A stretch of DNA of 10,212 bases from a virus (IMGVR_UViG_2606217104_000013); one strand, 5' to 3'; positions 1,098-7,926 are shown, counted from the stretch's first letter. Made by a program: numbers and translations. Notes: generated by a model not told the origin, from the sequence alone.

Positions 1098-1559
1098 CTA
1101 TCTGCACTGCTCATTAATATACGTCTGGGTTCCTTCCAGTTGTTTTTGCATAGTGATCAGCCTCTCTCTGAGGGTGAAATAATCCCGTTCAGCGGTGTCT
1201 GCCAGTCGGGGGGAGGCTGCATTATCCACGCCGGAGGCGGTGGTGGCTTCACGCACTGACTGACAGACTGCTTTGATGTGCAACCGACGACGACCAGCGG
1301 CAACATCATCACGCAGAGCATCATTTTCAGCTTTCGCATCAGCTAACTCCTTCGTGTATTTTGCATCGAGCGCAGCAACATCACGCTGACGCATCTGCAT
1401 GTCAGTAATTGCCGCGTTCGCCAGCTTCAGTTCTCTGGCATTTTTGTCGCGCTGGGCTTTGTAGGTAATGGCGTTATCACGGTAATGATTAACAGCCCAT
1501 GACAGGCAGACGATGATGCAGATAACCAGAGCGGAGATAATCGCGGTTACTCTGTTCAT
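1098..1559 (-). CDS. Rz: Rz i-spanin (inner-membrane spanin subunit)
   Basis: 153 aa from ATG at 1559 ([21 protein letters not shown]...), near-identical to lambda Rz: N-terminal TM segment plus coiled-coil periplasmic domain. Its ATG overlaps the R stop (ATGA). The ORF-track start at 1571 is an upstream GTG. Confidence 0.9.
1157..1339 (-). CDS. Rz1: Rz1 o-spanin (outer-membrane lipoprotein) embedded in the +1 frame of Rz
   Basis: 60 aa; lipobox LVVVGC then proline-rich [22 protein letters not shown], matching lambda Rz1; lies entirely inside Rz in another frame. Confidence 0.85.
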
Positions 1560-2053
1560 TGCTGACCCCACAAACAGATTTCACGCTCAATCTCACGACG
1601 AGTCATGAGACCTTTCCATTGCTTACCGCCAGCATATGTCCAGCGACGTAGCTGATCACATGCGCCTTTGATATCGCCCTGGTTTATTTTGCGAAGAAGC
1701 GTCGATGTTCTGAAATTGCCAGCACCCACGTTGTAAACGAATGAGTAAAGAGCGCCGCGCGTTGTTTCCGGTATATCGACTTCGATGTACGGGTTAATTT
1801 GTCTGGCGACAGTGGCAAGGTCTTTATTCAAGAGTGCTTTGCATTCTGCTTTGGTATACGTTTTACCGAGCATGATGTCTTTTCCTGTATGCCCGTGACA
1901 TACAGTCCATACACCAACAATATCTTTGTATGGTATGTAGCTGACACCTTCCAGACCATCGTTACCACTTGGGCCAGTGATTAACACTGATGCTATAGCA
2001 ATTGCTCCGCCACCAATAGCAGCAGCAACGGCTTTTCGTAATGATGGAGGCAT
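1556..2053 (-). CDS. R: SAR endolysin (phage 21 R21-like, T4-lysozyme-fold muramidase with signal-anchor-release domain)
   Basis: 165 aa; N-terminal Gly/Ala-rich weakly hydrophobic SAR segment ([20 protein letters not shown]); catalytic E...D...T spacing in [16 protein letters not shown]; start ATG overlaps the S stop (TAATG). Confidence 0.9.
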
Positions 2054-2268
2054 TATTCACCTCTCGCAGCCTTGCGCTTATCTTCTTTAATCTTGAAATA
2101 AAGGTTTGTCAGGTACGTCAGCAGGCCAAATACCAGGCTACCCAGCACACCTATTGCTGCCCACTGTGAGGGCGTGACTTTATCGAGCAGCTGTAAAAAC
2201 CAGTAACCGGCACTACCTGCTGAGGTGCCATAGGCGACACCCGTTGTTAACTTATCCATGGATTTCAT
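2053..2268 (-). CDS. S: Class II holin / pinholin (phage 21 S21-like)
   Basis: 71 aa from ATG 2268 (MKSMDK dual-start motif, strong GAGGTGGGG RBS); two TM segments, charged C-terminus [13 protein letters not shown]. The ORF-track extension to 2313 is an upstream alternative start. Confidence 0.85.
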
Positions 2269-2396
2269 AACCCCACCTCGCAGACAAAGCGGGTGTAAAT
2301 TGAGGGAATACAACGTATCGCAAAAAAGCAGAAACGTAACAGACTCGGAGTCAGTGAATAACTCAGGTATTGGGTTATCAGCTAATATCGAGACTC

Positions 2397-2430
2397 AAAA
2401 AATGGAAAAACCCGCTCGACGGCGGGTTTA
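2397..2430 (-). terminator. Rho-independent terminator on the minus strand, about 130 nt upstream of S
   Basis: Minus-strand RNA reads AAACCCGCC-GUCGA-GCGGGUUU followed by UUCCAUUUUUU (8-bp stem, U-tract). Confidence 0.5.
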
Positions 2431-2856
2431 AGCTGTGTGACGAAGTAACCACTCTTAACAGCATAACCAATTTTTTACGTACGTAAACCACTAAATGATA
2501 TTTGCGAGAATGCTACCGAGTATTGAAAACACCACTACAAATACATAAGCAAATCTCAACAAATAACCAACAAATAATTTCCAGCGTTATTTTTAGCCGA
2601 TTTAAATTGAACCTTCAAATTATAGAGCACTTATAAATAACAGCCATTAATATAAATTGGCTAATAGATTTATTTTTATTCAGCCAAGAGCCATGAATAG
2701 GATTCGATAGAAAAAGTTCAGATAAAAATAGAGATCTACTTCACAAATCAAATGAGAAACCAAAACTTACATCTTGAAATAATCACATTGATTAGATGAA
2801 TATTTATCGCGCAGTGACATCATTTTTTAATAATAGTTCAAAAAAAAGGGCTCACG

Positions 2857-3939
2857 ATGAAAAAATTAACAGTGGCAATTTCTGCTGTAGCTGCATCAGT
2901 ACTGATGGCGATGTCTGCTCAGGCAGCTGAAATTTATAATAAAGACAGTAACAAGCTGGATCTGTACGGGAAAGTTAATGCTAAGCACTACTTCTCCTCT
3001 AATGATGCAGATGATGGTGATACTACTTATGCCCGTCTTGGCTTCAAAGGTGAAACCCAAATCAACGATCAACTGACTGGTTTCGGTCAGTGGGAATATG
3101 AATTCAAAGGCAACCGCGCTGAATCTCAAGGTTCCTCCAAAGATAAAACCCGTCTTGCCTTCGCTGGCCTGAAATTCGGTGACTACGGCTCCATCGATTA
3201 TGGCCGTAACTACGGTGTAGCATACGATATTGGTGCATGGACCGACGTTCTGCCAGAATTCGGTGGCGATACCTGGACCCAAACAGATGTATTCATGACT
3301 GGTCGCACCACAGGTGTTGCAACTTATCGTAACAATGACTTCTTTGGTCTGGTTGATGGTCTGAACTTTGCTGCTCAGTATCAGGGTAAAAATGACCGTA
3401 CTGACGTAACTCAAGCTAATGGTGATGGTTTCGGTTTCTCCACTACTTATGAGTATGAAGGTTTCGGCGTAGGTGCAACCTATGCTAAATCTGACCGCAC
3501 TAATAATCAGGTTATCTACGGTAACAACAGCCTGAATGCATCTGGTCAAAATGCTGAAGTATGGGCAGCTGGTCTGAAATATGATGCGAACAACATCTAT
3601 CTGGCTACTACCTATTCTGAAACCCAAAACATGACTGTTTTTGGTAAAAACCATATTGCCAACAAAGCACAAAACTTCGAAGTAGTTGCACAATATCAGT
3701 TCGACTTCGGTCTGCGTCCGTCCGTTGCTTATCTGCAATCTAAAGGGAAAGACTTGGGTGCTTGGGGTGATCAGGACCTGGTTGAATATATTGATGTAGG
3801 TGCAACCTATTACTTCAACAAAAATATGTCCACTTTTGTTGACTACAAAATCAACCTGATTGATAAGAGCGATTTCACGAAAGCATCTGGCGTTGCTACC
3901 GATGATATCGTTGCTGTAGGTATGGTTTACCAGTTCTAA
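2857..3939 (+). CDS. nmpC: General diffusion porin, OmpC/OmpF/PhoE family (prophage-borne Lc/NmpC-type moron)
   Basis: 360 aa; signal peptide [23 protein letters not shown] then AEIYNKD; many Gly/Tyr/Asp/Asn beta-strand repeats; C-terminal VYQF aromatic beta-barrel signature. Sits antisense between Q and S as in DLP12 and PA-2. Symbol given by family and context, not by search. Confidence 0.85.
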
Positions 3940-3954
3940 TTTGATTACTAAAAG

Positions 3955-3987
3955 ATATGTTGGGGAGGCTTTGCCTCCCCAACATAT
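3955..3987 (-). terminator. Strong 15-bp GC-rich hairpin; candidate late terminator tR' on the minus strand
   Basis: atatgttggggaggc-ttt-gcctccccaacatat; on the minus strand it is followed by AUAUCUUUUAG, and it lies about 170 nt downstream of the Q stop, the expected tR' distance. Two more hairpins follow at 3988-4009 and 4013-4036. Confidence 0.35.
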
Positions 3988-4075
3988 AAGTGGCTCCCTC
4001 AAGCCACTTCCTTTAGAAGCACAACCTTGCTTCTAACTATATAAACCTTCTGTTATATATTACCCTTTATTTTTG

Positions 4076-4100
4076 GGGGCGTTTCAACGCCCCATTTTTA
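4076..4100 (+). terminator. Rho-independent terminator on the plus strand downstream of the porin gene
   Basis: GGGGCG-tttcaa-CGCCCC followed by ATTTTTAATAATTTTTA; T-tract only in the plus direction. It would stop porin transcription from running antisense into Q. Confidence 0.6.
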
Positions 4101-4126
4101 ATAATTTTTAGTAAACAATTGGCATA

Positions 4127-4510
4127 TTAATTAGAGTTATTAACAACGATATCCATCTCTAACCGGATATCTAATGCCATTAACATCCCTTCAATTATGC
4201 CCTCAGCCTTCTGTAACCTTTTCCCGATATAACCATCAGAGCAGCAATGCTTACCTGCCAGTGACATGAATGTCATACCGACTACATAATAATCTACTAA
4301 TAAATCGTGCAAATCGCTGTTGTTCTTTTTCAGACGGGCCATGCACCCGCAAATGATCATCGCGTCATCGTCACAACATTGCGGGCGAGATTTTACTTTT
4401 GAAGTAATTAATCCCTTAAAACCGGCGGCAATGGACGACCAGGTCACATCTTCATGATTATTAGCCGCCCACGCTCCCCAACGCTCAAGAACCATCTGAA
4501 TATCACGCAT
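4127..4510 (-). CDS. Q: Late-gene antiterminator Q (small DLP12 QuuD / phage-21-type)
   Basis: 127 aa from ATG 4510 ([24 protein letters not shown]...); Cys-rich core ([16 protein letters not shown] ... KHCCSDGY) typical of small Q antiterminators; sits immediately upstream of the lysis cassette. The ORF-track start at 4525 is a TTG. Confidence 0.8.
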
Positions 4511-4595
4511 CAACTTACTCCACAAAAATCAGACCAGAACGCCAATTACAAGCAAAAATCAACGAAACAGTATTAGTTGATTGTTATCTCTGACT

Positions 4596-6221: not shown

Positions 6222-6623
6222 TTATTTTAACTCATAGATCAGACAGTCAACGATTTCTAAACCATTTACCATAGAATTAGAAACGCGAACTTTACCATCG
6301 TTGACTCTAGCAAATCCTTTTAACATTTTATAAACAAAAGCTGAATCCCCCTTAGCCTCAATTGCTTCTAATGGTATCGGCTTATACTTTTTTGATATGC
6401 TATTTCTATTTATCTCACTGATTTTTCTATATATTTCTGCCGGCCCACGTTCTGAGAAGTCACTGATAACTAAAATATATCTCCAAGATAGATCTGGGTA
6501 ATAAAACCACATTGCAGCATCAATAGTTAAATTCTGTAACTTGAGTTTTTTTAACAAAAATTGACCTGAGAATTCCATATCTTTTGTCAACTCTCTGCCG
6601 ATTACCAGTGTGCTTTTACCCAT
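6222..6623 (-). CDS. Hypothetical 133 aa protein, second gene of the AT-rich two-gene operon (possible partner/antitoxin-like component)
   Basis: ATG at 6623 with GGAG 8 nt upstream; start lies 22 nt inside the 3' end of the upstream gene; roughly 35% GC against about 50-55% in flanking phage genes; no family recognised. Confidence 0.6.
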   Translation of the reverse strand: MGKSTLVIGRELTKDMEFSGQFLLKKLKLQNLTIDAAMWFYYPDLSWRYILVISDFSERGPAEIYRKISEINRNSISKKYKPIPLEAIEAKGDSAFVYKMLKGFARVNDGKVRVSNSMVNGLEIVDCLIYELK

Positions 6624-7018
6624 TTCAAAACTCCAGAATTTTGGTCACCTACAGCATCAAACAATTGTTCGGCCATAGCTTTACTTATGTTATTGTCGTA
6701 TCTAAATTGCTCGCTCCAGTCTTTAACGACCGACCAGTTAATCTCCAACGAAACATCATTTTTTGCGTCAGCAATCAAAATTTGATGTAAGTTGGCAATT
6801 TTGAGAAGTTGCGACAAATCATGAGTATATGAATCATTTACGACTTTTTTGTTTGGAAACTCATGTTGTAAAAATGACTTGGCAATACAGGCCTTCAATG
6901 CACATTCAACTGCATACCCACAAAGATAATATGCACCATGAAAAAAGCCATGATCAAGCAAGCATTTGGCCTCATTAAGCCTAGTGTCAGATAATGCTTC
7001 AAGGTCGTTTTTATTCAT
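6602..7018 (-). CDS. HEPN-like domain protein (138 aa), first gene of the AT-rich two-gene operon
   Basis: ATG at 7018; helical protein with HEPN-like signatures: YAVECALKACIA (cf. QAxEKxLKAxL), THDLSQL, and a C-terminal FRYD motif. The canonical Rx4-6H arginine is replaced (VNDSYTHD), so the assignment is tentative. Confidence 0.55.
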   Translation of the reverse strand: MNKNDLEALSDTRLNEAKCLLDHGFFHGAYYLCGYAVECALKACIAKSFLQHEFPNKKVVNDSYTHDLSQLLKIANLHQILIADAKNDVSLEINWSVVKDWSEQFRYDNNISKAMAEQLFDAVGDQNSGVLKWVKAHW

Positions 7019-7317: not shown

Positions 7318-7926
7318 TTACAGCCGTTCAGAACGTAAATGCGTCAATACTCGACTCCACTTATCATCCTGCCACGGCCGGAATTTTACATGTGCCGTTT
7401 CTCTGGCAAGGATTGCCTGTGCCTTATTGAGTATCCGGGGATATTCTTGTTCGATTGAAGTGAAGCGACCGGCTTCGCGGTGTTCTGCTACCTGAAGAAG
7501 CGGAGTGACGTTTTGGCAAGCGGTTAACATTGTGTCACTTGCCCGCCATAACCAAGCAAGTGTGCAAAGTTCGTTATCAGTGAATTGTTTTGTGATTGGG
7601 GATTGTTGAATTTCTCGATCGAGAATATCCAGCACCCAGCGGCGGAATTCTTTGGCCACAGGAGTGCGGGCGAACATGGCGATCAGATGGGCGCCACGGA
7701 GGGAGAAAATGCGAGTCTTCTTACGATAATTTCCTGAGGTCGTTGATTCGACGACCTGAGACATTCCGTCAGTAAACTCATCAATATTTTTGTTGTAGAT
7801 GTCGGTTACTGCTTTGGTGCTGGCATATTTTAATGCTGCCGCCAATTCTTTGCTGGTAAACCAGATCTGGTTGTTGTGATTTATAGGAGTGAATTTTACA
7901 TCGCGGAATGCGAGCTGAGTGACCAT
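7318..7926 (-). CDS. Bro-N domain protein (Roi / antirepressor-like)
   Basis: Bro-N-like N-terminal domain (LAFRDVKFTPINHNNQIWFTSKELAAALKY ... RIFSLRGAHLIAMFARTPVAKEFRRWVLDIL). Start is uncertain: ATG 7926 (202 aa) is preferred; in-frame ATG 8061 (247 aa) is possible. The ORF-track start at 8163 lies upstream of an intrinsic terminator and is unlikely. Confidence 0.5.
   Translation of the reverse strand: MVTQLAFRDVKFTPINHNNQIWFTSKELAAALKYASTKAVTDIYNKNIDEFTDGMSQVVESTTSGNYRKKTRIFSLRGAHLIAMFARTPVAKEFRRWVLDILDREIQQSPITKQFTDNELCTLAWLWRASDTMLTACQNVTPLLQVAEHREAGRFTSIEQEYPRILNKAQAILARETAHVKFRPWQDDKWSRVLTHLRSERL

Follow-up and report, generated by a model that had tools for sequence, protein, structure and literature searches.

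The window analyzed here, i.e., the whole stretch of 10,212 nucleotides of viral DNA (IMGVR_UViG_2606217104_000013), is a segment of a lambdoid prophage of the DLP12/PA-2 type, in which the minus strand represents the phage direction. Gene identities were assigned from the ORFs of the window together with their matches to Pfam profiles. The first gene in phage order encodes the replication protein P (9231–9953, minus strand), which is followed by a NinB-like gene, ybcO and rusA and then by the gene of the late antiterminator Q. The first late gene encodes an S21-type pinholin/antiholin (2053–2268, minus strand; Phage_holin_2_1) with a dual start at positions 2268 and 2259. It is followed by a SAR endolysin gene (1556–2053, minus strand; Phage_lysozyme) and the spanin genes Rz/Rz1 (1098–1571 and 1157–1339, minus strand; Phage_lysis), and bor was found on the plus strand (725–1066) in the ORF/Pfam survey. 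The start of the holin gene is the ATG at 2268, which gives the MKSMDK dual start of the S21 type, and not the TTG at 2313. All lysis gene assignments agree with the annotation of 434B and phage 21.

The Q gene (4127–4510, minus strand) encodes a QuuD-type antiterminator of 127 amino acids. The ORF had been listed as 4127–4525 with a TTG start at 4525, while its homologues begin at the ATG at 4510 (MRDIQ). The protein covers the entire PF06530 profile (positions 1–118 of 118, E = 4e-53), matches the Q21 chains in the PDB entries 6jnx and 6p18 (E = 7e-7), and is 100% identical to the Q protein of DLP12/434B and 77% identical to that of 933W. A late promoter similar to that of phage 82, which a pause at +25 had first suggested, was ruled out on this basis, since PF06530 corresponds to the Q21 family and PF06323 is the family of Q82 (PMC9388147).

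An intact gene for a general porin of the NmpC/Lc type (2857–3939, plus strand), which encodes a precursor of 360 amino acids, separates Q from the lysis genes S, R and Rz and has the opposite orientation. The protein matches the Pfam family Porin_1 (PF00267) over the full length of the profile (residues 29–360 on positions 1–337 of 337, E = 3e-153) and is 98–100% identical to many database porins. As read from the translation, its N-terminal leader ends in AQA directly before AEIYNK, and its C-terminus is GMVYQF with an aromatic last residue. The gene is preceded by an AT-rich regulatory region (2490–2856, plus strand) with a GC content of 27–34%, in which the block 2697–2856 is nearly invariant across 49 variants. 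These data bear out the original prediction of a complete OmpC/OmpF-family porin with a signal peptide and a long AT-rich region upstream of it, and gene order and orientation agree with its description as a porin moron that has its own regulatory region and lies antisense between Q and the lysis genes. At the nucleotide level, the cassette is homologous to DLP12 nmpC and its 3' flank. A chromosomal porin as the origin of the cassette flanks was considered and rejected, as the porin genes of Citrobacter, Salmonella and Enterobacter (76–79% amino acid identity) lack both the hairpins on the 3' side and the AT-rich stretch upstream. In CFT073, both mRNA and protein of the prophage nmpC genes were detected at 37°C (PMC12890032), and the porin is probably expressed in the present lysogen as well.

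Over the 2.6 kb that extend from Q to S, the window shares 92–98% nucleotide identity with 36 phage records. Among these is 434B (93.7% across 2.6 kb), a phage that is able to grow and carries the DLP12 segment of Q, late promoter, nmpC::IS5 and lysis genes (PMC9119081). The interval between the Q stop codon and S is best matched (99.9%) in strain mip270_05, by a prophage that has genes for terminase and portal. Of 5426 complete E. coli genomes, 2465 (45%) contain this interval at a coverage of at least 80%. The module is therefore already known: its parts nmpC/lc, ipeX and quuD have long been described in DLP12/PA-2-type prophages, and very little of the locus is new.

The late promoter and its leader

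When the segment that runs from the porin start to S was compared with phage genomes, only positions 2406–2488 (minus strand) matched phages without the porin gene. The pR' and tR' features annotated in 933W, which overlap the end of Q, fall within this match. By alignment to the 933W promoter, pR' of the window is located at 2453–2487 (minus strand) and consists of the −35 element TTTACG (2487–2482), a 16-nt spacer, the −10 element TATGCT (2465–2460) and the transcription start A at 2453; the pairwise alignment shows TTTACG, 16 nt and TATCAT in 933W. The −35 element sits within the dyad TTTACGTACGTAAA (2487–2474). Past the −10 element, both sequences continue with the same invariant block TAAGAGTGGTTAC (2457–2445 in the window) and then with a conserved GC hairpin and a T-run. 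This promoter-leader block is invariant in SfII, PhiR55_1, mEp460 and 1720a-02, while its flanks vary.

The pR' leader (2397–2452, minus strand) comprises a small hairpin (GTGG...TCAC, 2451–2436) and then an intrinsic terminator, the equivalent of tR', which was called in a terminator scan and has its stem at 2429–2408 and a T-run that extends to 2397. A leader RNA of about 50–56 nt is predicted to be made from pR'. This terminator had been listed earlier as a further minus-strand feature at 2397–2430 just before S. Its existence was confirmed by the scan, but it does not adjoin S, as it lies about 130 nt upstream of the holin start at 2268; it is the tR'-like terminator of the late leader.

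In 933W, the predicted transcription start is position 936 of L004, and a transcript that ends with the final T of the downstream terminator (1193) would be exactly 258 nt long. The same length of 258 nt separates the PR' start determined by dRNA-seq from the tR' end determined by Term-seq in the Sakai prophages Sp5 and Sp15 (PMC7547250). The aligned element is therefore the experimentally mapped late promoter, where the tR' mapped in Sakai is the second terminator at +258 and not the homologue of the first hairpin, which is termed tR' here.

In K-12 DLP12, promoter and leader are identical to those of the window. The predicted +1 corresponds to position 577,229 of NC_000913.3 and 576,452 of U00096.2 (converted with an offset of 777 taken from essD). 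The Cappable-seq table of uninduced K-12 cells (Ettwiller et al.) lists a plus-strand start site exactly at 576,452; this start-site evidence stems from K-12 and not from the present strain. The constitutive start at the predicted base in K-12 is followed by an intrinsic terminator in the leader. The signal at this position is weak (relative read score of 1.7), which would be expected if leaders of about 50 nt are lost during library preparation. For 573,500–573,799, which includes the quuD-nmpC spacer, the K-12 data contain no plus-strand start site.

A promoter scan based on consensus sequences was discarded as evidence because it did not discriminate: pR', which agrees with the sigma70 consensus at 8 of 12 positions, was not among its hits, and the Q-porin spacer holds hexamers that are equally good by consensus, e.g., TTGAAA and TAATAT separated by 19 nt. 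Near pR', neither a match to the Q-binding element (QBE) of phage 21 nor a clear −10-like pause element was identified.

A much stronger start in the phage direction is found close to the porin ATG. The K-12 Cappable-seq start at 576,081 (plus strand, U00096.2) has a relative read score of 90 and corresponds to position ~2823 (minus strand) of the window, seven bases past a TATTAT −10 element (2835–2830); the porin ATG, on the opposite strand, is 33 nt away. The promoter of the DLP12 lysis cassette has been located in the nmpC-essD interval and is under the control of both Q and RpoE (PMC7918800). The published reporter primers for this cassette map to 2929 to 2143 of the window, and the published numbering of the amplicon (−121 to +650) cannot be exactly reconciled with them. 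A candidate sigma-E promoter that would have explained this numbering (GAACTA, 2839–2834, and TCACT, 2817–2813) was dropped, as it has no Cappable-seq start site.

The spacer between Q and the porin gene

The Q-porin spacer comprises 187 bp (3940–4126) rather than the 170 bp reported for it before. The four hairpins described in this spacer were all recovered, each folding far better than shuffled controls: 3955–3987 (−26 kcal/mol, z = −7.1), 3988–4009 (−10.4 kcal/mol, z = −4.4), 4013–4036 (−9.6 kcal/mol, z = −6.3) and 4076–4093 (−12.5 kcal/mol, z = −4.2). For the fold of the entire spacer, z-scores of −10.4 on the plus strand and −8.2 on the minus strand were obtained. The consensus scan for terminators identified 4076–4093 as a plus-strand terminator, in line with what had been proposed, and 3987–3955 as a weak minus-strand terminator with the tail CTTTT.

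We take ipeX to map immediately 3' of nmpC, in the quuD-nmpC spacer of DLP12, and Castillo-Keller et al. are said to have placed it directly 3' of nmpC in 2006. RefSeq records of K-12 carry no ipeX annotation. The spacer of the window and the DLP12 quuD-nmpC spacer are identical at 183 of 189 aligned positions (97%). Based on folding, the plus-strand terminator and the identity to DLP12, we assigned positions 3940–4106 (plus strand) as the porin 3' UTR and the region equivalent to ipeX. It contains the hairpins 3955–3987, 3988–4009 and 4013–4036, a weak AU hairpin at about 4038–4059, and the terminator hairpin 4076–4093 followed by a T-run. The T-rich tail past the fourth hairpin ends about 163–167 nt from the porin stop codon. 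IpeX is a 167-nt sRNA of DLP12 that is produced as part of the porin transcript (PMC12197685; PMC5069750) and decreases OmpC and OmpF (PMC12197685; PMC5069750; PMC3617542). With a size of 167 nt, the 3' end of the equivalent RNA would lie at about 4106. Searching the full window against Rfam (E ≤ 1) gave no family match in either the spacer or the pR' leader, and the spacer variants were too alike for a covariation test of the hairpins.

Pieces of the spacer were not found beside Q homologues that carry other cargo, and most of it (spacer positions 3–163) persists beside the porin gene in a prophage remnant of E. albertii from which Q has been lost. This distribution links the spacer to the porin, with which, rather than with Q, it is inherited. 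Together with the 97% identity to DLP12, the presumed position of ipeX and the length of about 163–167 nt, this linkage argues that the hairpin cluster is to be read as the porin 3' UTR/IpeX with its terminator and not as a pR' leader. In the present strain, IpeX is probably both produced and functional.

Arrangement of the porin cassette and the late promoter

Taken together, our results make it very probable that a porin-ipeX cassette separates Q from its late promoter, with pR' located beyond the porin gene, so that late transcription avoids the porin ORF. In the proposed arrangement, a lysogenic-conversion cassette of 1.6–1.7 kb would consist of the AT-rich regulatory region, the porin gene nmpC/lc and a structured 3' UTR taken as IpeX. 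It would be transcribed away from pR' and toward Q, ending at the terminator 4076–4093, which would shield Q from antisense read-through. The late promoter would fire away from the cassette, and its short leader would end at the terminator 2429–2397 until Q is made. After induction, Q would load in trans at pR', allowing RNA polymerase to read through this terminator and to transcribe the structural genes as well as S, R and Rz; such loading and read-through at pR' probably occur here. Since Q acts in trans, its gene need not adjoin the promoter. Porin gene and pR' would thus be back-to-back units, and Q-modified transcription would never run over the porin ORF, which could presumably be crossed only by pR transcripts that read through past Q. 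The earlier claim that late transcription must cross the porin gene in antisense does not hold with the start of pR' at 2453, on the lysis gene side of the porin. Both the homology to 933W and the K-12 start site place the late promoter downstream of the porin gene, the very position that the original prediction had named as speaking against itself.

That prediction instead expected pR', qut and tR' in the 187-bp spacer as in lambda, with hairpins that include a 6S-like leader and its terminator, and with the porin gene crossed in antisense toward S. It is true that pR' directly follows Q in lambda, phage 21 and 933W, and the spacer does offer a minus-strand hairpin before CTTTT and AT-rich hexamers that resemble promoters. 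However, the spacer has no homology to any pR' of the Q21 family and lacks the core motif, which is found 1.67 kb from the Q stop codon, so that the late promoter does not directly follow Q here. In addition, the spacer contains no plus-strand start site in the K-12 Cappable-seq data, goes with the porin and not with Q, and closely matches the DLP12 spacer in which ipeX presumably lies. A true pR' homologue, for which a start has been mapped, is located past the porin gene on its downstream side. We consider this layout extremely improbable. Somewhat less remote, yet still very unlikely, is that the lysis genes are mainly transcribed from the strong promoter at ~2823, or from an RpoE-dependent stress promoter in the same interval, and that the 933W-like pR' is minor or vestigial. 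The relative read scores of 90 and 1.7 and the control of the DLP12 cassette by RpoE as well as Q (PMC7918800) point in this direction. Against it, transcripts that start at 2823 still reach the terminator at 2429–2397, Q-type factors load only at the cognate promoter-proximal pause, and Cappable-seq is expected to under-count short terminated leaders. Moreover, the candidate sigma-E promoter is not matched by a start site, and the pR' core and leader are invariant among phages with unrelated cargo, which argues for function.

A further question concerns the spacer hairpins, which might serve mainly to insulate the two convergent transcription units of Q and the porin from each other in both directions, blocking read-through from the porin gene into Q and of unmodified pR transcripts into the porin gene, with a role as trans-acting sRNA being secondary. 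The convergent orientation of the two genes and the terminators on both strands (hairpin 4 on the plus strand and, weakly, hairpin 1 on the minus strand) are in agreement with such a function. Three additional stable hairpins, however, exceed what termination needs, and effects of IpeX on OmpC and OmpF in trans have been published; we therefore regard the insulator as rather unlikely to be the main role, while noting that both roles are compatible.

The preferred arrangement, with the cassette between Q and pR', has a direct counterpart in DLP12 (qsr') of K-12 and in 434B, where quuD, ipeX, nmpC and essD show the same order and orientation; the DLP12 Q protein is identical to that of the window, the spacer is 97% and pR' with its leader 100% identical. 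The porin gene is intact here, whereas it is cut by IS5 in K-12 DLP12, and its surface-loop regions represent another allele than the K-12-like NmpC-type porin of an E. albertii locus (L110). Compared with K-12 DLP12, there is also a 16-nt insertion between the terminator and S and a 1-nt deletion in hairpin 1. The lc gene of phage PA-2 (protein 2), known from lysogenic conversion, is likewise a porin gene on a lambdoid phage. The PA-2 porin is reportedly expressed from the prophage, with a drop of OmpC/OmpF in lysogens (work ascribed to Schnaitman, 1975, and Blasband, 1986). PA-2 has also been named as a carrier of IpeX (PMC8065619).

In 933W and Sakai Sp5, which have a Q of the same family (77% protein identity), the −35 element, spacer, −10 element, +1, initial transcribed sequence and first hairpin with T-run are all homologous to those of the window. 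However, pR' overlaps the 3' end of Q in 933W, and the cargo (tRNAs and stx) is located downstream of pR' in sense orientation and is therefore Q-dependent, whereas the cargo here lies upstream of pR' in antisense orientation and is therefore Q-independent. The StxS leader of 258 nt with its RNase E-processed 3' fragment of 74 nt, known from 933W/Sakai, has no counterpart in the window: homology to 933W stops after the first hairpin and T-run, and the StxS body (L004 ~1000–1193) and the second terminator are absent before S. Phage 21 shares with the window the Pfam family of Q, a very short leader with an intrinsic terminator (+3 to +50) and the S21/R21 lysis cassette. Its promoter directly follows Q and has no sequence similarity to pR' of the window, and its QBE is a direct repeat between the −35 and −10 elements, whereas the lineage studied here has a dyad over the −35 element.

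Cargo between Q and pR' in related phages

IMG/VR was scanned for the leader core TAAGAGTGGTTAC, and a Q gene was sought in the 5 kb upstream of each match. At least 120 stretches matched, and at least 100 loci had a Q homologue upstream of the core, in the same orientation in all of the matches listed. Among 100 listed loci, Q was adjacent to the core (20–62 nt) in 24 and separated from it by cargo of 0.63–2.5 kb in 76, with at least 12 size classes of cargo; a porin gene was present in 38 of these 76. The non-porin cargos at the loci listed have a GC content of 31–44% and are mostly antisense. They encode, again among the listed loci, a KAP NTPase (PADLOC candidate PDC-S20), PDC-M68A-like and PDC-S42-like proteins, an esterase and, as a nucleoid-associated-protein pair, an NA37 protein together with its membrane partner, among others. 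As Q acts in trans, such cargo can split the Q gene from its target promoter.

The GC hairpin and T-run are kept in 67 of 76 distinct leader variants despite at least eight unrelated stem sequences, which supports their role as a terminator. A dyad centered near −28 was found in 92% of the variants vs. 18% of shuffled sequences. Its sequence tracks the Q cluster regardless of the cargo: for example, the QuuD/933W cluster has TTTACG(T/A)(A/T)CGTAAA, the mEp460 cluster GCGTACGC and the 1720a cluster GCGGTCCGC. The dyad may thus be a candidate Q-binding element, although genetic linkage alone could also yield this pattern. The slot with its displaced promoter and the dyad that co-varies with Q are side findings of modest weight, which may be less appreciated; in a limited literature search, we found no explicit description of a cargo slot between Q and pR'. 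We regard it as possible, though somewhat less likely than not, that in the 933W/QuuD branch of the Q21 family Q-independent, mostly antisense cargo of low GC content repeatedly uses the junction of Q and pR' as an insertion slot, and that the dyad at the −35 element may be an unrecognized Q-binding element.

In the corrected map, the late promoter is located at 2487–2453 and does not adjoin Q. The porin gene and ipeX are outside the Q-controlled late operon, so that the lysogen can express them in the absence of late transcription. If the proposed slot is real, prophages annotated as lacking PR' beside Q simply have their PR' displaced. The separation of Q from its promoter matters for the annotation of late promoters, e.g., in Stx prophages, in which toxin output depends on pR', and for locating cargo and defense slots in prophages.

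Cargo between Q and the late promoter

The interval separating the antiterminator gene Q from the late promoter pR' was analyzed in IMG/VR loci that carry the pR' core (L172-L290). The gap between Q and the core falls into at least 12 cargo size classes, mostly antisense and of low GC content. The encoded cargo includes a KAP NTPase (PDC-S20), proteins resembling PDC-M68A and PDC-S42, an NA37 protein and its membrane partner, and an Abhydrolase_3 esterase, and for several further cargo proteins of these loci a family match was sought and none was found. The Stx2a prophage of RM14516 was described as having a Q with 47.6% identity and an 'altered qut', as having 'lacked the late promoter PR'', and as having two CDSs that separate Q from stx2a (PMC10562709). 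What was taken there for an absent promoter seems to be another case of the displaced promoter described here.

A dyad, here TTTACGTACGTAAA, lies over the -35 element of pR' (window 2487-2474, minus strand), and dyads also occur at the equivalent position in L172-L290. Among the IMG/VR matches listed, such a dyad was found in 92% of 76 promoter variants, as compared with 18% of shuffles. In the listed matches of L172-L290 it takes at least seven different sequences, each associated with one Q protein cluster, whatever cargo intervenes. The -35 dyad of pR' is a candidate Q-binding element.

Variation in the leader and in the spacer hairpin

In many porin-type prophages, the 3' arm of the leader terminator stem reads GAGCTGG in place of GAGCGGG, a G-to-T change at the equivalent of window position ~2413; such L021-type copies make up 24 loci and several singletons. 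Since the change disrupts one G-C pair of the stem, the copies concerned may either leak into the lysis genes or be decaying. Compared with K-12, the window carries an insertion of 16 nt, CTGCTTTTTTGCGATA (2317-2332, minus strand), after the leader terminator and ahead of the holin start. The porin-carrying prophages also lose their mutual sequence similarity just 3' of the leader terminator, a loss that marks a mosaic junction.

In the spacer between porin and Q, the 5' arm of hairpin 1 (window 3955-3987) is without one base, C or T, that is found in all 23 related spacer variants. As a result, the stem is a perfect 15 bp in the window; it is bulged in the relatives. In one of them (L087), the 3' arm has gained a matching A, a putative compensatory change.

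A start site beside the porin start codon

Cappable-seq of K-12 places a strong phage-sense primary start site at 576,081 (relative read score 90), which corresponds to window position ~2823 on the minus strand and is preceded by a -10 element, TATTAT, at 2835-2830. The porin start codon, an ATG on the other strand, is 33 nt away. RNA initiated here would be antisense to the 5' leader and promoter of the porin gene and would extend for ~420 nt to the terminator at 2429-2397. The site could be the published 'lysis cassette' promoter of DLP12, or else a spurious AT-rich promoter.

Other modules and porin remnants

On the minus strand of the window, Rfam further identifies a C4 antisense RNA (82.5 bits), isrK (64 bits) and a c4-a1b1 target, directly upstream of a Bro-N/P22_AR_C antirepressor gene (7978-8177 and 7318-7926 for RNAs and antirepressor jointly). 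Together these constitute a P1/P7 immI-like c4-ant module within a lambdoid prophage. An ORF on the plus strand (8679-9026) sits between replication gene P and this module and belongs to VCH_CASS14, a family of integron-cassette proteins (E = 6e-20). Between the NinB-like gene and ant, an island of 32-36% GC holds two overlapping minus-strand ORFs (6222-7018), one encoding a HEPN-domain protein (Pfam, E = 3e-6; the PADLOC match to PDC-M28A is weak) and the other a 133-aa partner without a family match; the two may form a toxin-antitoxin or defence pair.

Parts of the porin module also persist in prophage remnants. In E. coli WP3-S18-ESBL-09, positions 3001-3375 match the AT-rich porin upstream region (window 2520-2897) with 83% identity; the region stands alone there, without any porin; its neighbours are emrE-ybcL-ybcM, and the DLP12-like remnant that contains it is decayed and located near fliE. 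In E. albertii NBRC 107761, a remnant adjoining minC (positions 231-2667) has been reduced to bor, a porin of the NmpC type and the greater part of the ipeX-like spacer. Its porin shares 89% amino acid identity with that of the window and is presumably the nearer of the two to K-12 NmpC. Q and the pR' core are gone from this remnant, and no lysis gene is among its listed ORFs. The retention of bor, the porin and most of the spacer without Q or the pR' core suggests selection for conversion genes.
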